A stretch of DNA of 64,000 bases from the sequence record NZ_CP093377.1. One strand, written 5' to 3'. The position numbers and the translations under genes were made by a program. The notes under the pieces were generated by a model. The model was not told the DNA's origin, did no database searches, and was given only the letters and a program-made list of their open reading frames with translations. Shown here one piece after another: positions 375-23,165 of the stretch (the first letter of the stretch is position 1; every line of letters starts with the position of its first letter). The stretch comes from a plasmid.

Positions 375-520
375 AAGGGTTCACGTTGTCTCCGTCCTCA
401 CCCGTTCGCACCTTTCACGGTGCATTCAGCCCGTGAAAGGCTTGCGCTGCGGCTTGCGGCGTCGCCCCTGCGCCCTCCGCTCAGAGCCGGGTTTTTGTGG
501 CGGCACGGCGCAAGAGGGTG
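375..520 (+). promoter_or_regulatory. Structured repeat copy A1 (putative ssDNA promoter/ssi-like element) upstream of the methyltransferase
   Basis: About 130 bp nearly identical to 2105-2235. Contains a perfect 10-bp hairpin (cctttcacgg N10 ccgtgaaagg). Sits directly 5' of a leading-region gene. Confidence 0.4.
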
Positions 521-545
521 CCGCATATCAGAGAGGAGTGTGTCT

Positions 546-1238
546 ATGTCCCGTTTTATTCTGGGTGACTGCGTGCAGGTGATGTCCCGTTTTCCGGCGC
601 GTGCCGTCGATTTTATTCTTACCGATCCGCCGTATCTGGTTGGCTATAAGGACCGTACCGGGCGCACCCTGGCCGGGGACAACTCTGCCGAATGGCTCCA
701 GCCCGCCTGTCATGAAATGTACCGCGTGCTGAAAAATGACAGCCTCATGGTGAGTTTCTATGCCTGGAACCGCGCGGATCTGTTTCTGAATGCGTGGAAA
801 ACGGCCGGTTTCCGGGTGGTTGGCCATATCGTCTTTACCAAGAGCTACGCCTCAAAATCGACGTTCGTGGGTTACACGCACGAGAGCGCCTACCTGCTGG
901 CTAAGGGGAGGCCGCAAACCCCGGACCGTCCCATCCCGGACGTGATCCCCTGGAAATACACGGGCAACCGACACCACCCGACGGAGAAGCCGGTGCAGAG
1001 CCTGCGACCGCTGATTGAATCGCTCACGCGTCCCGGGGCCATTGTCCTTGACCCGTTCGCCGGCAGCGGCTCCACCTGCGTGGCCGCCGCCGAAGCCAGC
1101 CGCCGCTATATCGGGATCGAGATGCTTGAGGAGTACCACGCCGCCGGCGTCCGCCGTCTGGCACAGGTTGAACGGGCGAGAAGGATGCCGGCGGCCAATG
1201 ACGGCGCGTTTTACCCTGACTGGCCGGAGGCAGCATGA
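546..1238 (+). CDS. Orphan N6-adenine DNA methyltransferase (DPPY motif) of the leading region
   Basis: ORF 420..1238 with internal ATG at 546 preceded by GAGAGGAG. Motifs FILTDPPY, PTEKP and DPFAGSGST match ParB-associated/Dam-like N6 methyltransferases. Confidence 0.85.
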   Translation: MSRFILGDCVQVMSRFPARAVDFILTDPPYLVGYKDRTGRTLAGDNSAEWLQPACHEMYRVLKNDSLMVSFYAWNRADLFLNAWKTAGFRVVGHIVFTKSYASKSTFVGYTHESAYLLAKGRPQTPDRPIPDVIPWKYTGNRHHPTEKPVQSLRPLIESLTRPGAIVLDPFAGSGSTCVAAAEASRRYIGIEMLEEYHAAGVRRLAQVERARRMPAANDGAFYPDWPEAA

Positions 1239-3189: not shown

Positions 3190-3735
3190 TGAAACCCGAT
3201 CAGCAAATCCTCTGAAAACACCTGAATCCTTCTTCTGGCCCCCTTCGGCTCCCGGCCCGCGTGGCGGTCCGGTCGTCGAGCCCCACTCCGCCAGGTCGGC
3301 TGCTGACGCACCCGCCGGGCTCCGCCGAACCCGCAGGCGGTTTCGGGCTGACGCTAGGGTCTGATGGCTGAGGTCAACCCCCTGGCTTGCACCGGCCGGA
3401 GGCCGGGCCGCCCTGACCGCGCCGGCGGAGCCGTCGCTTTAAGGCCGCCACGCCGTTCCGACGTGTCGGGTGCGTGCATCCTGTTCTCCCGGTGAGGCCA
3501 TCCCCCGTGCGTCCTCACGCGGAGGGCTGCTTGTAGCACCGTCGTGTCGTCATCCGAAGGGTGAAATGCACGCCGCCAAAACTTTTTGCGTGCCGCAAAA
3601 ACTTTTGTCTGCGCCCTTCTTCTGCCGCCCCGCCGTTGCTCCTTTTGCCCTTTGCCGCGAGAGAACTCACCAGGGAGATGGCCAACCATCACCACAGGAG
3701 AAAACCAGGATGCACACACAAAACGTCAACGTCAA
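3190..3735 (+). repeat. Large direct repeat copy R1, ending in the RBS and first ~15 codons of the downstream gene
   Basis: About 500 bp near-identical to 8470-8976 and 11720-12214. GC-rich with internal partial palindromes (ccggccggaggccgg; ttttgcgtgccgcaaaa). Confidence 0.85.
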
Positions 3736-3982
3736 AACCGCCGCTCAGGAATCTTCCAGGAAGATGGGGGAAGAGCAAAACCCTGTTTCTGTCGCGCGTG
3801 AGTGGGTGGCTCAGGCCACTTCGCTGAAGGCGGGGGTCACCGTCACCCTGTCCGACGTTTCCCGATATGGCGACGTGCAGGTGGAGATCCGCACCAACGG
3901 AACGCTTAACTGGCGCGCCTGGTCGTTTGAACCGGATTTTCTTTTTGAACTGAAACGCAACCTGCAATACGTGCAGCTTTAA
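3710..3982 (+). CDS. Hypothetical protein, member 1 of the MHTQNVNVKTAA 5'-module family (90 aa)
   Basis: ATG at 3710 after GGAGAAAACCAGG. N-terminus MHTQNVNVKTAAQESS is shared with the ORFs at 8951 and 12188; the C-terminus is unique. Confidence 0.6.
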   Translation: MHTQNVNVKTAAQESSRKMGEEQNPVSVAREWVAQATSLKAGVTVTLSDVSRYGDVQVEIRTNGTLNWRAWSFEPDFLFELKRNLQYVQL

Positions 3983-7686: not shown

Positions 7687-7834
7687 GGATATATACAGTT
7701 TTTGGACTGTTATTCCTGGGCAGATGATCGACAACGGGATATAATGGCGATGGCGCTTGAGGCTTTTTGCCTCATGATGTGAAGGTGGTTTGTTGTCGTG
7801 TTGTGTGGCAGAAAGCAGAAAGCCCCGTAGTTAA

Positions 7835-7900
7835 TTTTCATTAACCCACGAGGCCCCCTGTATGTCTCAACAACAACAGTATGGCCTCTTACCGTGCTTA
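7835..7900 (-). ncRNA. sok: Putative Sok-type antisense RNA of the hok/sok post-segregational killing locus
   Basis: Expected position antisense to the mok start, upstream of hok. Boundaries were not determined. Confidence 0.3.
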
Positions 7901-8077
7901 ATGCAAGGAGGAGTAAACCATGAAACTGCCGCGAAGTACCGTTATCTGGTGCGTACTGATAGTGTGTCTCACACTGCTGATATTCACTTACCTGACGCGA
8001 AAATCGCTTTGCGAAATTCGCCTGAGGGACGGACAACGGGAGGTCGCTGCAATTCTGGCTTACGAATCCAACGGTAA
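7862..8077 (+). CDS. mok: Mok (modulation of killing) reading frame overlapping hok
   Basis: A 71-aa ORF overlapping hok in another frame, the typical hok/mok arrangement. Confidence 0.55.
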
Positions 8078-8189: not shown

Positions 8190-8976
8190 CCCGACGCGAC
8201 CGCACGCCTGAACCTCCGGGAAGGGCTGTTCCCCTGCGGGGAACGGGGGAAGGGGGACGCGCCTCCGGCGCTGCCCCTCTGCTCCCTCTGCCTGAGCCTC
8301 CCTCCTGCCTGTCCTGCCTGATTTTGTTGAATTCGAAACTCCGTGAGCTACCTGCTCATACCTGGCTTCGGCCTGGTGTGCCCGATGTTCTTTAGCCTGT
8401 GCGTCATATCCGGCGTCCTGCCGGTTAACTTTCGCATCTGCAGCTGTATGGCCATAACCCGAAAACAGGGCAGGGCGATGGCCCCCTTCGGCTCCCGGCC
8501 AGCGCTGCTGTCCGGTCGTCAAGCCCCACTCCGCCAGGGCGGCTGCTGCGCACCCGCCAGGCTCCGCCGAACCCCTCCGGGTTTCGGGCTGACGCTAGGG
8601 TCTGATGGCTGAGGTCAACCCCCTGGCTTGCACCGGCCGGAGGCCGGGCCGCCCTGACCGCGCCGGCGGAGCCGTCGCTTTAAGGCCGCCACGCCGTTCC
8701 GACGTGTCGGGTGTGTGCATCCTGTTCTCCCGGTGAGGCCATCCCCCGTGCGTCCTCACGCGGAGGGCTGCTTGTAGCACCGTCGTGTCGTCATCCGAAG
8801 GGTGAAATGCACTCCGCCAAAACTTTTTGCGTGCCGCAAAAACTTTTGTCTGCGCCCTTCTCCTGCCGCCCCGCCGTTGCTCCTTTTGCCCTTTGCCGCG
8901 AGAGAACTCACCAGGGAGATGGACAACCATCACCACAGGAGAAAACCAGGATGCACACACAAAACGTCAACGTCAA
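8190..8976 (+). repeat. Large direct repeat copy R2
   Basis: 8470-8976 is near-identical to R1 and R3. The extra 5' part (8190-8470) is shared with R3 only. Confidence 0.85.
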
Positions 8977-9265
8977 AACCGCCGCTCCCGAATCTTCCAG
9001 GAAGATAGAGGGAAAAACCGTGTCGTACACGATCCTCGTCGCTGAGCAGAAAAAAAACTCAGCGGAGGAACCTGATGTTCTGGAGTTCAGCAGCCTGGCT
9101 GAGCTGAAGAAACTGCGCAGACGCTGCCCCGAAACGATGCGCTGCACCTATTTCTACGCCCTCAGCAGCGGCGTCGATAAACAGTTCCGCCATATCCATG
9201 TGGCTGAAGCTGACCACTTCAAACAGTTTGTGCGCCTGATCGCGCGCGCAGGTATCGACATTTAA
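8951..9265 (+). CDS. Hypothetical protein, member 2 of the MHTQNVNVKTAA family (104 aa)
   Basis: ATG at 8951 inside repeat R2. The N-terminal 13 aa are shared; the C-terminus is different. Confidence 0.6.
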   Translation: MHTQNVNVKTAAPESSRKIEGKTVSYTILVAEQKKNSAEEPDVLEFSSLAELKKLRRRCPETMRCTYFYALSSGVDKQFRHIHVAEADHFKQFVRLIARAGIDI

Positions 9266-9326
9266 ATCCGGTTTCACCCCGTGCGGCAGCCGCCGCCCGG
9301 AACTTAATCAGACAGGAGCCAGAAGC

Positions 9327-9533
9327 TTGAGCGTTAACACCCCGACCGCAAAGGCCCGTTACGAAAATGGGCATATGTCAGACCCTGAGCCTAAAACAGC
9401 CTCTCTCATTGCGATTTATGGCAATGAGGTGAGCTATGCATGGAACGTTCTGGAGGATTTGAAAGCTGCAGGTGCTTCTTATACCCGCAGAAACATTATC
9501 GCCGATATGTTCCGCCGTCTGGGTGTTCAGTAA
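9327..9533 (+). CDS. Hypothetical protein (68 aa, TTG start), M(S/N)VNTPTA family
   Basis: ORF track. The upstream ~50 bp and first 8 codons duplicate those of the ORF at 9611. Confidence 0.35.
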   Translation: MSVNTPTAKARYENGHMSDPEPKTASLIAIYGNEVSYAWNVLEDLKAAGASYTRRNIIADMFRRLGVQ

Positions 9534-9610
9534 CCCGGACTTACCTCTGACCCGATGCGGTGCTGTATAGCAGGTACCGCTCGGAACTGAATCAAACAGG
9601 AGCCTGAAAG

Positions 9611-10072
9611 ATGAACGTTAACACCCCGACCGCTGCACCAATGGCCTTTTTCGTTCCGTCTCATAACGCCGTTTATGACCGCGCAACCCGGCTGGAAGGG
9701 CAGTGGGTGACTCAGCGTGAAGCGATAACGCTGGAAGCCCTGCGCCGTTTCTATCCGGATGCGGAGCTGATCCCCGCGACTCTGGTTCAGGAAAAGCAGA
9801 ATGAAGGCTATCGCCGTCCCTGGGTGGAAATCACCGAGGCCCGGTACATCGACCAGCTGGAAACGCTGCCGCCAGTGGACTGGTGCAGAGGGTATGGCGG
9901 GGAGTCGTTCAAATCGATGGAGTTTACGGGCGGGGATGTGACCGCAATTTTCGTCCGGTACGGCGCGCGTTTCTTTGAGTGCCATGACCTGCACACCCGC
10001 CATCACCGGGAGCTGATTGGCGACGTGATCACCCGTTTCTGTCTCGATGCGCCGCTGAATTCCGCGCATTAA
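9611..10072 (+). CDS. Hypothetical leading-region protein, 153 aa
   Basis: ORF track; ATG after CAGGAGCC. Confidence 0.55.
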   Translation: MNVNTPTAAPMAFFVPSHNAVYDRATRLEGQWVTQREAITLEALRRFYPDAELIPATLVQEKQNEGYRRPWVEITEARYIDQLETLPPVDWCRGYGGESFKSMEFTGGDVTAIFVRYGARFFECHDLHTRHHRELIGDVITRFCLDAPLNSAH

Positions 10073-10159
10073 AAAAGCAGGGTTGCCCCTGCTTTCTCAA
10101 CGCCGGGTAGCCGCTGTAACGGTGAACCGGCAATCACAACCAAAGTAAGGAGATTGATC

Positions 10160-10306
10160 GTGAAATTTGACCCGCAAACTGTAAAACAGGCTGAGGCATT
10201 TGTAAATGCCCTCCGCGCCGGAAAACGTGCACACATGCCCGCGCTGCGTTTCGGCCAGTGGCAGCAATTTATGACCACCGTTTACGCTGGTCTGGGGCTG
10301 GCATAA
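10160..10306 (+). CDS. Small hypothetical protein (48 aa, GTG start)
   Basis: AAGGAGA lies 7 nt before GTG at 10160; own translation. Confidence 0.3.
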   Translation: MKFDPQTVKQAEAFVNALRAGKRAHMPALRFGQWQQFMTTVYAGLGLA

Positions 10307-10346
10307 CAGGAGGCGGCCGCCTGCGGGCGGCCGGTAAGGAGAAACC

Positions 10347-11124
10347 ATGTCACAACTGAGTTTTGAATCCCTGTTCCTGGCAGACCAGACCGAACCGCAG
10401 CCGCGGGTTTCCGCTCCTGTCCGGGTATTGTCGCCAGCTGAGGCGCGTAAGCAGTTCGCCAGTGTATTCCGCCAGACTGCGAGATATATGCACCGTTCCG
10501 AAGTGTTCCTTGCTGCCAGTGGGCTGGATATGGCGCGCATACACACGCCAGAAAACATCGAAAACAGCCGACGCATCTGCGAACGGTATCAGCCAGACGA
10601 TTTAGACGCCATGAGGCATCTGTTCTGCCTGTTGGTGGAGGGGCTGGCGGGTGAAATGCATGATTTCCTCGGCGCTCTGTATATGGAGCATGAGCTGGGC
10701 GCGGACGAAATGGGGCAGTATTTCTCGCCGTCCTCCATCTCCCGCCTGCTGGCCGGGCTACTCATGCCCGGCGCTCAGGAGACGATAAAGCGTGAGGGGG
10801 GGGATGACGCTCGATGAACCCGCCTGTGGCAGCGCCGGTATGGTCATTGCCTTTGCTTACTGGATGGCTGAAGCGGGACTGAATCCATCTGAACAGCTGT
10901 ATGCGACCTGCACTGATATCGATCCGATGGTGGCAGATATGGCCTTTATCCAGCTGTCACTGCTGGGTATCCCCGCGAAAGTCGTGACCGGTAATACGCT
11001 GACTCTGAAAGCAAATCGCGTGCGTTATACCCCCGTGTATTACTTCAATGACTGGCAGGGACGTCTGGAGTTCCGCAGCCGTTTCGAAGCGATGAAAAAC
11101 TTTCTGGCCACCGTGGCCGCCTGA
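10347..11124 (+). pseudogene. HsdM-like (N6_Mtase N-terminal motifs) gene lacking NPPF, split into two frames at a G8 homopolymer
   Basis: ORF 10347..10817 contains GQYFSPSSISRLL. The +1-frame ORF 10792..11124 contains DEPACGSAGMV and the MADMAFIQLSLLG motif. The frames meet at the G8 tract 10796-10803; removing one G fuses them into a ~258-aa protein. Confidence 0.55.
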
Positions 11125-11165
11125 CTGACAGAGCGGCAGGGCAGACCTGCCGCAGGGAGATAAAA

Positions 11166-11501
11166 ATGACAAGCAACACACTGAACGCTGTTCCGGCGAC
11201 CGTGCTGGAGACCATGGCAGAACGCCTCAACGGCCAGCCTGAACCGCTAAAAATCCGCAACAACGACGATCACGCTGCACTGGCTGCAGATGTGCTCTGG
11301 CAGTTTGCCCGAAAAACCGGGCTGAACAGGGAAAGCGAGAGCGTGCAAACTGTCATCACTGATTTTCTGGCCAATCTTCTGCACCTGTGCGAACAGTGCG
11401 ATCCTGACGGGGCAGGTATCGACGGATTTAATGCCCTGCTGAATATGGCCATGATGCATTATGAGCAGGAAAACGGAGGCGACAGCGAAGAACCAGTTTG
11501 A
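11166..11501 (+). CDS. Hypothetical protein, 111 aa
   Basis: ORF track. Confidence 0.5.
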   Translation: MTSNTLNAVPATVLETMAERLNGQPEPLKIRNNDDHAALAADVLWQFARKTGLNRESESVQTVITDFLANLLHLCEQCDPDGAGIDGFNALLNMAMMHYEQENGGDSEEPV

Positions 11502-11544
11502 TCGGGAGTCTGTGCCCTGGTGGATGCCATCAGGGCAACCGCAA

Positions 11545-12214
11545 AAAAACGCTTCCCCTTAGGGGAAACGGGGAGGGCGAAAGCGCCTCCGGCGCTCCTG
11601 CCATTCCCCGCTACCGTACTTCTCTCCTTACCTGCCTTCAGAACCGGCGTCCTGCTGGTTAACTTTCTCAGCTGCAGCTTTGTTATGGCCATAACCCGAA
11701 AGCAGGGCAGGGCGATGGCCCCCTTCGGCTCCCGGCCCGCGTGGCGGTCCGGTCGTCAAGCCCCACTCCGCCAGGGCGGTTGCTGACGCACCCGCCGGGC
11801 TCCGCCGAACCCCTTCGGGTTTCGGGCTGACGCTAGGGTCTGATGGCTGAGGTCAACCCCCGGGCTTGCACCGGCCGGAGGCCGGGCCGCCCTGACCGCG
11901 CCGGCGGAGCCGTCGCTTTAAGGCCGCCACGCCGTTCCGACGTGTCGGGTGCGTGCATCCTGTTCACCCGGTGAGGCCATCCCCCGTGCGTCCTCACGCG
12001 GAGGGCTGGTCGTAGCACCGTCGTGTCGTCATCCGAAGGGTGAAATGCACGCCGCCAAAACTTTTTGCGTGCCGCAAAAACTTTTGGCGGCGCCCTTCTC
12101 CTGCCGCCCCGCCGTCGCTCCTTTGCCCTTTGCCGCGAGAGAACTCACCAGGGAGATGGCCAACCATCACCACAGGAGAAAACCAGGATGCACACACGAA
12201 ACGTCAACGTCAAA
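11545..12214 (+). repeat. Large direct repeat copy R3
   Basis: Near-identical to R1 and R2, including the embedded start of the downstream gene. Confidence 0.85.
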
Positions 12215-12481
12215 ACCGCCGCTCAAGAATCTACCGGAAGATGTGATTCAAACCTCACCACGTCCCAGTTCACGGATCTGTTTTGCTGGGTCCTGGCAGC
12301 ATCGGAAGGGGAGCCACAACCGGCAATTTTTACGCCGCCAGAGAATGCCACTGAGCTGACGTTAATTAATGACGAATGCCCGGATTATATCTCTGTCTGG
12401 GTTGTGGATGGTCGCCCGGTGGCAGCTGCAATGCCGCTGGATAATTTTCACCGCGTTATTCCTTCATCATTTGCTAAATAA
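12188..12481 (+). CDS. Hypothetical protein, member 3 of the MHTQNVNVKTAA family (97 aa)
   Basis: ATG at 12188; N-terminus MHTRNVNVKTAAQEST. Confidence 0.6.
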   Translation: MHTRNVNVKTAAQESTGRCDSNLTTSQFTDLFCWVLAASEGEPQPAIFTPPENATELTLINDECPDYISVWVVDGRPVAAAMPLDNFHRVIPSSFAK

Positions 12482-12497
12482 TCAGGAGTAAATAAAA

Positions 12498-13319
12498 ATG
12501 GTCAGTTTCGCAAGCCGCTATCGTATGCCTTCCTCGATCCGTAAAGACCGTCCGCTGACGAATGAGGAATTACAGCTCATCGTTCCGAGCGCGTTCTCAT
12601 CGGATAAACACGATTCACGCTCTGAACGTTATACATATATCCCGACCATAAACATTCTTGACCGTTTACGTGATGAAGGGTTTCAGCCGTATTATGCAAC
12701 GCAGTCACGCACACGTGACCAGGATAAACGCGAATTTACAAAACATATGCTTCGCCTGCGTCGTCATGACCAGATTAACGGGAAAGAAGTACCGGAAATT
12801 ATTCTGCTGAATAGCCATGATGGTTCAAGCAGCTATAAAATGATCCCCGGTATGTTCCGTCAGGTTTGCAGTAATGGTCTGGTTGCATGGAAGGATTTTG
12901 GTGAAATCCGCGTACCCCACAAAGGGGATATTGTCGGGCAGGTTATTGAAGGCGCTTACACGGTGCTGAAAACATTTGACGCGGTTGATGAAAATATTGA
13001 CCTCATGAAAAGCATTCAGCTCACTTTGCCTGAGCAGCGCCTTTTTGGTGCGACCGCACTGGAACTTAAGTACGATGGAAAACCAGCGCCGATTACGCCG
13101 GAGCAAATTATTAACCCCCGCCGGGTACTCGACAGAGGCCAGGATTTATGGACCACGTTTAACGTGGTACAGGAAAATGTGATCCGTGGGGGGATTCGTG
13201 GCAGAACGCAAAAAGGGAAGGTGACCAGAACGCGGGAAGTCACCGGAATTGATGGTGACATCAAATTAAATCAGGTGCTCTGGAAAATGGCGGAGGAGTT
13301 TGCAAAACTTAAGGCCTGA
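12498..13319 (+). CDS. DUF932-like plasmid/phage-related protein, 273 aa
   Basis: Size and position (leading region next to oriT) are typical of DUF932 proteins. RBS CAGGAGTAAATAAAA precedes the ATG. Confidence 0.6.
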   Translation: MVSFASRYRMPSSIRKDRPLTNEELQLIVPSAFSSDKHDSRSERYTYIPTINILDRLRDEGFQPYYATQSRTRDQDKREFTKHMLRLRRHDQINGKEVPEIILLNSHDGSSSYKMIPGMFRQVCSNGLVAWKDFGEIRVPHKGDIVGQVIEGAYTVLKTFDAVDENIDLMKSIQLTLPEQRLFGATALELKYDGKPAPITPEQIINPRRVLDRGQDLWTTFNVVQENVIRGGIRGRTQKGKVTRTREVTGIDGDIKLNQVLWKMAEEFAKLKA

Positions 13320-13347: not shown

Positions 13348-13887
13348 TTACTGTCCGCTATGTAACGAGGCCGTTTCCGCAATTTGAATCGCCTTCTCCT
13401 TTCCCGCAGCTGGCGCCAGACGTTCAGAAAGCAACTTTTTTCTGGCGAGCAATACACGATATATATTTTTGATATCCTGAGCATACGCCTTGCGCTGCGC
13501 AATGAGCTTTTTGCTCGGCCCCGTATTATACATCCCTACGCTGTCCCAGTTTTTTCCGTATGACCTGAAGTTGTGCGCCAGTACCCATGCACCCGTATAA
13601 ACGCAGATGCATGGATCATTCAACAGGCGCTCTCGGGTAATATTGAAGTTTTTAAGTTTACCGTAATGAGAACTGTTCACCTGCATCCCGCAGACATCTT
13701 CTGTTCCATTTCTGTTAGATCCATTTATCGCACCCGGCTTAAGTCTGCTCTCTTTAATTGAAATTGACATAAGCAGCAGCGGATCAATTTGATAATCTTT
13801 CCCGGCCTGATCAAAGCACATCTGGGGAGCTGCGCCAGCAGACATGGATAGGGTCAGCAATGCCGCAGGGAGTATCGATATTTTCAT
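13348..13887 (-). CDS. Lytic transglycosylase (gene X / orf169-like, SLT domain) with signal peptide
   Basis: Signal peptide, then an ES catalytic-Glu motif (SISIKESRL) and NGTEDVCGMQVNS. Adjacent to oriT as in F. Confidence 0.8.
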   Translation of the reverse strand: MKISILPAALLTLSMSAGAAPQMCFDQAGKDYQIDPLLLMSISIKESRLKPGAINGSNRNGTEDVCGMQVNSSHYGKLKNFNITRERLLNDPCICVYTGAWVLAHNFRSYGKNWDSVGMYNTGPSKKLIAQRKAYAQDIKNIYRVLLARKKLLSERLAPAAGKEKAIQIAETASLHSGQ

Positions 13888-14485: not shown

Positions 14486-14872
14486 ATGCCAAGAAAGAAC
14501 ATTTACTTTAAAGACAAAATTGACCGCGAAATACATGATATTCTTGAAATAGAACTACAGAAAGGGGCCACCACCTCTGAGATGAACTACTCATCAATAG
14601 TCAACGAATTAGTACGCCTTGGGCTAATGGTTTACAAATCGAAAGAAGAAGGAAGCTCATTTGACCTGGATGGCTTCAGGCGCGACCTTATAAAGAAAGT
14701 CTCCGGGTCGCGAGAAGGTATTATGATTCTGACTGCCCTTGTTTCTGACATCTTCGTTACACTCAAAGGTCCCGACTCTGGCGTGAAACTGGAAGAGCTC
14801 ATAAACACCAATATCAGTGCAATTAACGATGCGGAAGATAAAGCCGAAAAAGACCACTTCCTGGCAGGGTAA
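14486..14872 (+). CDS. traM: Relaxosome accessory protein TraM
   Basis: 128 aa, immediately after oriT. The helical C-terminus and overall pattern resemble F TraM. Confidence 0.85.
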   Translation: MPRKNIYFKDKIDREIHDILEIELQKGATTSEMNYSSIVNELVRLGLMVYKSKEEGSSFDLDGFRRDLIKKVSGSREGIMILTALVSDIFVTLKGPDSGVKLEELINTNISAINDAEDKAEKDHFLAG

Positions 14873-15597: not shown

Positions 15598-15748
15598 GCC
15601 TACTCACTTACCCATTCAGATAAATCTGAATAATTCTAAAAAATGTGACATGGGTCACAGTTTTTTTTTTTTGAGGTTATGGGACAATTGCGCCCGCGTA
15701 AACAAGCACTTACGCGAATCACTTTTGTTTACCTCGGAGAAAACAAAC

Positions 15749-22755: not shown

Positions 22756-23165
22756 GTGAACAACAGGACAAGCCGTATGAAGGCGATACCGTCAACGATG
22801 GTGCAACGATCGCCGGCAAAACATCCCGCTGGGTTAAGGCCTGCATGCTGGGGCTGGCAGGATTGCCGGGCATGACAGGTGTGGCATATGTTACGGCAAA
22901 AGCCGTCACACCGGAGGTGGTGGTCTTCGATATGAAGGGAACCGTTGACCTGTTTATGCAGCAGTCCGCGCAGCTGCAGCTCGATGAGGACAAAGCCCGG
23001 GTGCTGACAACGCGTTTCAATAGCGCGCTGTCAGACAGTCTCGGTGAATGGCAGGCCTCACATAACGCCATCATTCTGGTTAAACCGGCGGTGATGAGTC
23101 CGCAGCGGGATATCACGAATGAGATCCGTGCCGACATTGCGCGCCGCACTCAGGGGGGGCAGTGA
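22752..23165 (+). CDS. trbI: TrbI
   Basis: About 137 aa with one TM segment, between traC and traW. Confidence 0.6.
   Translation: MSEQQDKPYEGDTVNDGATIAGKTSRWVKACMLGLAGLPGMTGVAYVTAKAVTPEVVVFDMKGTVDLFMQQSAQLQLDEDKARVLTTRFNSALSDSLGEWQASHNAIILVKPAVMSPQRDITNEIRADIARRTQGGQ

Follow-up and report, generated by a model that had tools for sequence, protein, structure and literature searches.

The stretch of plasmid DNA analysed here (sequence record NZ_CP093377.1; 64,000 nucleotides, hereafter the window) carries in its leading region a gene resembling hsdM, which encodes the methyltransferase subunit of type I restriction–modification (R-M) systems, and the reading frame of this gene is interrupted at a run of eight G residues (G8). 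We conclude that the locus is probably an inactivated, decaying copy of a half-methyltransferase gene conserved in the leading region of F-like plasmids, and that G8 is a by-product of mutation and not a switch. As judged by sequence comparison, G8 is a lineage-specific frameshift as opposed to an evolved contingency switch, and the HsdM-like architecture without an NPPF motif is a conserved property of a large half-methyltransferase family and not a truncation of the window gene.

The locus is composed of two consecutive open reading frames (ORF1 and ORF2; Table 1). A preliminary description of the window had taken them for halves of one HsdM-like gene with a +1 frame switch inside G8, and our analysis confirmed both points: relatives carry a single ORF of 263 codons, and removal of one G fuses ORF1 and ORF2 into an uninterrupted frame of 258 codons. 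The window proteins were scanned against Pfam at E ≤ 1, with one G removed for the fused translation. The fused protein matched N6_Mtase and no other family (E = 1.8e-8), over profile positions 21–118 of 311 only; ORF1 and ORF2 taken singly each fell below the threshold of this family. This result supports the claimed similarity to HsdM on profile search, and it is consistent with the earlier statement that the product does not belong to ArdA, ArdB or ArdC. The window carries all the motifs that bind S-adenosylmethionine (SAM), namely GQYFSP (motif X) in ORF1 and EPACGSAG (motif I), TDID (motif II, DID) and TGNTL (motif III, GNTL) in ORF2, where they are followed by a T-P-V-Y-Y segment and a C-terminal helix. 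As the preliminary description had reported, NPPF is absent from the fused product, and TPVYY is found at that position.

The mutational origin of G8 is apparent from comparison with relatives. The 1.3-kb region matches 120 plasmids in PLSDB, mostly IncF plasmids of Enterobacter, with a top identity of 93.8%, and each relative examined among these matches has a single intact ORF of 792 bp (263 residues) annotated "N-6 DNA methylase". The ORF is also intact in 36 of 36 species-level homologues from GTDB representative genomes (210–279 residues), and the ratio of nonsynonymous to synonymous substitution rates (dN/dS) in intact relatives, 0.09–0.17, indicates purifying selection. In a DNA alignment, close relatives read GAG GGG TGG ATG or GAG GGT TGG ATG (E-G-W-M) at the G8 site, where the window reads GAGGGGGGGGATG. 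Comparison of GGGGTGG with G8 indicates that a T→G substitution (W157G) made a run of seven G residues (G7), to which one G was then added. No homopolymer of seven or more occurs at this site in the 36 species-level homologues, which have other codons there. By composition alone the tract is unexceptional, because first-order Markov simulations of the window gave a mean of 2.2 G/C runs of at least eight, with one or more such runs in 91% of simulations; G8 is therefore meaningful only by comparison with relatives. Other long homopolymers of the window are T12 at 15661–15672, upstream of tra operon genes, and G7 at 23153–23159, in the tra region. An intact homologue from Serratia bockelmannii (L053) has an in-frame G8 at gene position 318, a different site from that of the window, so such tracts arise sporadically in the family with the frame undisturbed.

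Damage to the window gene extends beyond the frameshift. A second lesion, overlooked in the preliminary description, is a 15-bp in-frame deletion: compared with the closest intact protein (P0012, 94% identity by BLASTP), the product of a G7 allele lacks the segment RDFIT and carries the replacements R50H and W157G. Conservation at these positions was read from an alignment of 108 family representatives that are pairwise less than 50% identical. D56 is kept in 104 and F57 in 99 of the 108 representatives, and position 157, a glycine in the window, is a conserved hydrophobic site occupied by F, Y or W in 97. The RDFIT segment falls in a confidently modelled helix of an AlphaFold2 (AF2) model. 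The neighbouring DUF1419, orf50, orf111 and DUF932 genes are intact, and pseudogenisation is the most economical reading of the deletion, W157G, G8 and the intact neighbours. Based on this, we propose that the Cronobacter plasmid lineage would have undergone a 15-bp deletion with loss of conserved residues, a T→G change that turned GGGGTGG into a G7 run, and a +1 slip from G7 to G8 that split the ORF, after which G8 would have been stably inherited.

The exact 156- and 106-residue products of the two ORFs occur on 32 contigs from NCBI and Logan assemblies, assigned to Cronobacter sakazakii or MULTISPECIES Cronobacter, and their database records comprise several GenBank protein accessions as well as one RefSeq entry of the MULTISPECIES kind. 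At the DNA level, three loci that were fetched do not differ from the window, G8 included; one of them has an insertion sequence (IS) element upstream and another a single-nucleotide polymorphism. The identical allele is present in at least three distinguishable plasmid backgrounds and several Cronobacter assemblies. Because structurally different plasmid variants share it, G8 is a real and stably inherited mutation. The preliminary description had considered a sequencing or assembly error, in which case the real gene would be intact. Homopolymers are error-prone, and contigs L009–L014 from JGI metagenomes (3300045669, 3300045720 and 3300045721) read GGGTGG instead of GGGGTGG, a loss of one G at the G8 site that splits the gene into 157 and 106 residues. 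The genes next to these sites are fragmented too, so the loss probably reflects homopolymer errors of noisy assemblies, and we did not use it as evidence. With the exact products of the window recurring in independent NCBI and Logan assemblies, an error at G8 is very improbable.

Several observations weigh against the locus being an inert pseudogene. A single contig (L008; Logan, SRR18292862), otherwise 100% identical over its 1756 bp, has G7 and an intact 258-residue ORF; tract length can thus differ between samples, and occasional switching is conceivable. ORF2 has its own ATG with GAGG before it, and a two-piece protein could keep some function. A split allele of the same family occurs in Acinetobacter baumannii: of 229 records of pACICU2-like conjugative plasmids, 60 were sampled, and 17 of these carry it. 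Finally, the substitutions on the window branch, nine nonsynonymous and eight synonymous, are too few to prove relaxed selection.

The G7 contig, together with the proneness of G8 runs to slippage, could point to a slipped-strand contingency switch of the HsdM-like gene, the other possibility raised in the preliminary description. A poly-G tract that sets the frame within a methyltransferase-like ORF is also typical of phase-variable mod and hsd genes. In the contingency loci of Haemophilus, Neisseria and Campylobacter, however, orthologues share the tract and it exists side by side in many lengths, whereas that of the window is confined to one lineage and hardly varies. The 36 species-level loci have GGGGTGG, GGGTTGG or unrelated codons in its place, and at the assembly level 32 contigs with G8 compare with one with G7. 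Exact look-ups of the G5, G6, G9, G10 and G11 products found none on record, and neither was the W-containing ancestor with the 15-bp deletion. G8 is stably inherited across different plasmid variants, and even the "ON" (G7) allele is still without D56 and F57 and retains W157G. We consider a switch unlikely. Neither of the two explanations offered previously fits well with the combination of 32 identical G8 contigs, a tract absent from relatives and a damaged in-frame allele, and an inactivated, decaying copy remains the reading that we prefer.

The position of the ORF2 start suggests another alternative, in which the split gene works as two polypeptides that reassemble. GAGG at 10794–10797, derived from conserved R-E-G codons, could serve as a ribosome-binding site for ATG 10804; this ATG overlaps the end of ORF1, whose stop lies 12 nt downstream, and translation of ORF2 might also be coupled to that of ORF1. 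The A. baumannii allele, which is independent, is split in the same linker. On MOBF/MPF_F conjugative plasmids of this species the gene is either intact (258 residues) or split between motifs X and I by a 2-bp deletion, in some cases together with an A6→A7 change (L019 and L021 versus L020; CP087355, CP140421, CP027243), and the pieces are annotated "type I R-M subunit M" and "hypothetical protein". A GAGG-rich stretch coding for the conserved (R/E)-E-G immediately precedes the start of the downstream piece in the Cronobacter allele as well as in that of A. baumannii, where this piece begins directly after GAGGAAGAGGGG. On an NCTC plasmid of K. aerogenes the family gene is split at a different point. 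However, the cut parts motif X from motif I of one SAM pocket and association of the halves is hypothetical, the Cronobacter allele has further damaging changes, and all 36 species-level homologues are single ORFs. We therefore regard a working two-piece protein as improbable. Recoding at G8, by transcriptional slippage or +1 ribosomal frameshifting, could in principle yield a full-length protein, as the context GGG GGG G would permit re-pairing of tRNA-Gly in the +1 frame. This is hardly credible, because the slippery site is followed by neither a slow nor a stop codon but by GAU, relatives do not share the tract, and G runs are poorer sites of RNA polymerase slippage than long A/T runs. The evidence on all these alternatives leaves inactivation of the gene as our preferred reading of the locus.

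The family to which the inactivated gene belongs is large. A hmmsearch with the family profile against 1.84 billion representatives gave 4573 matches, 937 of them at E < 1e-30, and nearly all of those listed are 220–320 residues long; when clustered at 50% identity, the family has more than 900 representatives. Across the 108 aligned representatives, near-invariant features are VF-DF, DFLG, GQ[FY]FTP (motif X), EPaCGaGG (motif I), D195 (motif II) and G-[ND]-[TS]-L (motif III). Motif III is followed by T233 (108 of 108) and P234 (95 of 108), then by [AVM], [HYF] and [YF], and further on by W241 and R/K244. The tail beyond T233 has a median length of 55 residues. Catalytic motif IV, (N/D)PP(F/Y/W), was not identified; based on topology, T-P-x-aromatic, represented by TPVYY in the window, probably occupies its place after strand β4. 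The description of the window product as an HsdM-like fragment without NPPF thus holds as to the motif, but this lack is not peculiar to the window, since it extends to the whole family.

In the AF2 model (pLDDT 77, pTM 0.72), a helical domain at the N-terminus is followed by four strands that alternate with helices and by one last helix. The complete seven-stranded class I fold was not found: strands β5–β7 and motifs V–VIII are missing from the model, and the Pfam N6_Mtase matches of the family cover only profile positions 7–121 of 311. The best sequence and fold matches of the family are HsdM chains and lmo1582. Against PDB sequences, the broad profile of 108 sequences matched EcoR124 HsdM, BseCI, BsaXI and StySJI M over motifs X and I; a narrower profile of 26 close homologues had no match there. 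NCBIfam contains no specific model for the family, and its hsdM and MAD2 models gave sub-threshold matches only. The similarity to HsdM of type I R-M (PF02384; the M subunits of EcoR124I, StySJI and EcoKI) includes motifs X, I and III, the acidic residue of motif II, and an alpha-helical domain ahead of the Rossmann part. In contrast with HsdM, which has about 470–540 residues, family members have 240–280, and they are without NPPF, β5–β7, motifs V–VIII and the C-terminal helices that bind HsdS. The Pfam HsdM_N domain was not detected in them, and hsdS and hsdR genes are not adjacent; no S or R subunit is found among the neighbours (psiB/psiA, DUF1419, small ORFs, ArdA-like, DUF932 and SLT).

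One alternative is that the family is a genuine orphan DNA methyltransferase that uses T-P-x-aromatic as a variant motif IV and works as a homodimer or with a partner. PGAP annotates the protein as "N-6 DNA methylase", the SAM-binding motifs are all intact, and T-P-x-Y/H/F shares the proline and the aromatic residue with (D/N/S)PP(Y/F). However, the Pfam match ends at profile position 118–121 of 311, and the roughly 55 residues after T233 provide one helix after β4, so that β5–β7, motifs V–VIII and any target-recognition domain are missing. Beyond close relatives there is also no conserved neighbour able to supply the missing half, and we consider this alternative unlikely. A split methyltransferase whose other half is encoded next door was rejected on similar grounds, as the neighbours are not conserved beyond close relatives and none is methyltransferase-like. 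Orphan methyltransferases known from leading regions (M.EcoGIX of pESBL, PMC7736820; the "MTase" class, PMC11541004) share the niche, the orientation and the automatic annotation with the family. Their catalytic domain is complete, whereas the family lacks the catalytic half, which makes protection by methylation unlikely.

By tblastn, homologues are present in 2195 of 72,556 plasmids (about 3%), 1505 of them conjugative. Klebsiella accounts for 710, Enterobacter for 272, Acinetobacter for 259 and Pseudomonas for 157, and Bacteroides and Enterococcus are represented as well. Phage counterparts in PHROGs (phrog_5696 and phrog_23459) both have no assigned function, and a 704-residue member lies in a phage-like early region beside ERF and SSB genes. 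In three proteins of about 650 residues (P0142, P0144 and P0178), an ArdC-N domain, an MPTase-PolyVal zincin and a CbtA-like segment precede a C-terminal half-methyltransferase domain. An ArdC-fused member (locus L015, 8001–9956) is found in a chromosomal island beside an integrase, ParM and a type III CRISPR locus. A 335-residue member (P0140; locus L016, 7702–8709) has a precomputed Pfam match to KlcB_3rd (PF27190) at its C-terminus, although this Pfam family is absent from the listing of our local scan. KlcB is an uncharacterised protein of IncP kilC operons. We rejected homology to KlcB, since in the rows shown tblastn of P0140 against plasmids never hit a KlcB-annotated feature, and we read the segment as a C-terminal add-on in a few members. 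Our literature search found no paper characterising the family, which may correspond to Family 558 in the supplement of Samuel et al.

The window gene lies in a typical F-like leading region (Table 1). The N6_N4 methylase gene is followed by genes for a DUF1380 protein, an ArdA-type Antirestrict protein (2212–2718) and a 670-residue ParB-HTH protein, and then, in order, by psiB, psiA, hok/sok, DUF1419, the HsdM-like gene, DUF932, SLT, traM and traL/E/K/B/C. The origin of transfer (oriT) probably lies between SLT and traM, a gene order also found in the annotated relative L001. This would place the HsdM-like gene about 3 kb inside the leading region, in agreement with the preliminary description. 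The gene is co-oriented with psiB, psiA and ardA; because all leading-region genes are on the plus strand, the transferred strand would be the minus strand.

Table 1. Positions of the HsdM-like locus and of leading-region features in the window.
Feature	Position	Strand	Remarks
Whole frameshifted short HsdM-like gene (probable pseudogene)	10347..11124	+	Aligned to 792-bp orthologues of Enterobacter/Citrobacter IncF plasmids; intact form 263 residues
ORF1, 156 residues	10347..10817	+	N-terminal helical domain and motif X (GQYFSP); out-of-frame tail DDAR
15-bp in-frame deletion junction	10507..10508	+	RDFIT lost, including D56 and F57; DNA alignment and BLASTP against P0012
G8 homopolymer with +1 frameshift	10796..10803	+	Ancestral GGGGTGG: T→G (W157G) and one extra G
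ORF2	10804..11124	+	ATG start used by gene callers, 106 residues; 110 residues from GTG 10792
N6_N4 methylase, genuine	420-1238	+	Pfam N6_N4_Mtase
Frpo-like repeat copy 1	3204-3757		Family of ~550-bp repeats
sok antitoxin RNA	7751-7922	n/a	Rfam, 98 bits; small hok-like ORFs; between psiA and Frpo-like copy 2
Frpo-like repeat copy 2	8447..8998	-	Upstream of orf68-DUF1419-orf50-HsdM-like-orf111
Small conserved ORF, 48-50 residues	10154..10306	+	Directly upstream of the HsdM-like gene
orf111, 111 residues, intact	11166..11501	+	Downstream in the unit of the HsdM-like gene; no Pfam match
Frpo-like repeat copy 3	11684..12235	-	Closes the orf68-to-orf111 unit; precedes the DUF932 gene
SLT lytic transglycosylase	13348-13887	-	Pfam SLT
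traM	14486-14872	+	Pfam Tra_M; TraL/E/K/B/C next

The transcription unit of the gene is orf68-DUF1419-orf50-HsdM-like-orf111. In most species-level loci the small ORF directly upstream is better conserved than the HsdM-like gene, with 54–80% identity as against about 50–57% for the HsdM-like protein (97% and 86% in L022 and L023), and some RefSeq records misname it "succinate dehydrogenase flavoprotein subunit". Each of the three GC-rich copies of the ~550-bp repeat, with cores 94–99% identical, stands ahead of a block of leading-region genes. As single-stranded DNA, the minus strand of copy 2 is predicted to form a hairpin of about 250 nt (ΔG −159 kcal/mol, z = −7.55), and the three repeats are probably single-strand promoters of the Frpo/ssi type. 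A consensus promoter scan of 8400–12600 was uninformative, and an Rfam scan of the leading region identified sok only. Two direct repeats were also found. One, of 64 nt (83% identical; 9286–9349 and 9570–9633), spans, in orf68 (MSVNTPTA...) as in the DUF1419 gene (MNVNTPTA...), the site of ribosome binding and the first codons, so these adjacent genes share a leader and an N-terminus. The other, of 121 nt (87% identical; 390–510 and 2132–2252), lies where the N6_N4 methylase gene and the ArdA-type gene begin and suggests a shared upstream or 5′ element.

This placement recurs in other F-like plasmids, where the family gene lies 2–4 kb from oriT, with psiB/psiA on one side and ArdA-like or DUF932 genes on the other. 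Most fetched Enterobacterales loci have ParB-like, PsiB and PsiA genes 2–6 kb upstream, and an ArdA-like or DUF932 gene followed by SLT 1–3 kb downstream. A co-oriented ArdA-like gene comes directly after it in at least 13 of the species-level loci.

Based on these features, the intact protein of about 260 residues would combine an HsdM-like N-terminal helical domain with the first, SAM-binding half of a gamma-class N6-adenine methyltransferase (β1–β4, motifs X, I, II and III), would have an invariant Thr-Pro-x-aromatic in place of NPPF, and would be without the second half of the fold. Because that half is missing, canonical DNA methylation by the intact family is improbable. Its proximity to oriT, the upstream Frpo-like element, the adjacent ArdA-like genes and the ArdC fusions suggest that it may act as an early-expressed counter-defence or establishment factor. 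We hypothesise that, in a manner dependent on its SAM pocket, it would interfere with HsdM-type, SAM-dependent restriction complexes by mimicking a subunit. Such mimicry, which corresponds to the decoy idea of the preliminary description, is in our view the most likely mechanism for the intact family, and genomic context and the ArdC fusions make a decoy or anti-restriction role plausible. More tentatively, the intact family may be a class of counter-defence in which a non-methylating half-methyltransferase would employ its retained SAM pocket and its HsdM-like scaffold to disable type I R-M or other HsdM-type, SAM-dependent defences (BREX, type IIG/ISP) minutes after DNA entry; such a class would be new.

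The known anti-restriction proteins offer partial likenesses. The role proposed for the family, that of inactivating type I enzymes stoichiometrically soon after entry, would be one it shares with ArdA and Ocr, whereas these are acidic DNA mimics of unrelated folds and the family would mimic a subunit or bind SAM. ArdC and polyvalent proteins of the ArdC type (PMC7213743, PMC5512222) share the leading-region, early-entry context, and some carry the half-methyltransferase domain fused at the C-terminus. The window protein, however, has neither an ArdC-N nor a peptidase domain, and the fusion is evidence by association only.

Certain findings argue against this view of the family. Conservation is strongest in the SAM pocket and not on a surface that would bind HsdS or HsdR of the host, the helices with which the C-terminus of HsdM contacts HsdS are not apparent, and T-P-x-aromatic resembles a motif IV of the SPPY type, so that some catalytic activity is possible; our literature search found no experiment or paper on the function of the family. 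SAM-pocket-centred conservation and a very wide host range make a SAM-directed activity a serious rival. The family would then bind, sequester or cleave SAM itself and starve SAM-dependent restriction, as the T3 SAM lyase does. Among representatives less than 50% identical, the most conserved positions are the SAM-pocket motifs X, I, II and III and the invariant Thr-Pro, located where motif IV faces the methyl group. The hosts, which include Enterobacterales, Acinetobacter, Pseudomonas, Bacteroides and Enterococcus, have very different type I systems, and a small-molecule target fits this better than a host-specific interface. On the other hand, we know of no precedent for a Rossmann-type SAM lyase, and stoichiometric sequestration of an abundant metabolite is implausible. 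We judge action on SAM to be rather unlikely and continue to favour subunit mimicry.

Taken alone, the window gene would be an ordinary pseudogene and G8 a mutational scar, not a regulatory device. The significance of the locus lies in the family. Because the catalytic half is missing, the common plasmid annotation "orphan methylase" or "N-6 DNA methylase" is probably wrong for its members. Surveys of leading regions lump such genes with orphan methylases (PMC11541004), and the misannotation would affect surveys that count leading-region methyltransferases as protective methylases. The conserved place near oriT, together with the other contextual features that suggest an early role, makes the family a candidate for a new mechanism of anti-restriction, carried by conjugative plasmids of Klebsiella, Enterobacter and Acinetobacter that matter in the clinic. 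If this is true, the mechanism would be subunit poisoning or action on SAM, and recurrent loss of the gene in clonal plasmid lineages, as in Cronobacter and A. baumannii, may reflect that it is not needed within a single host background.

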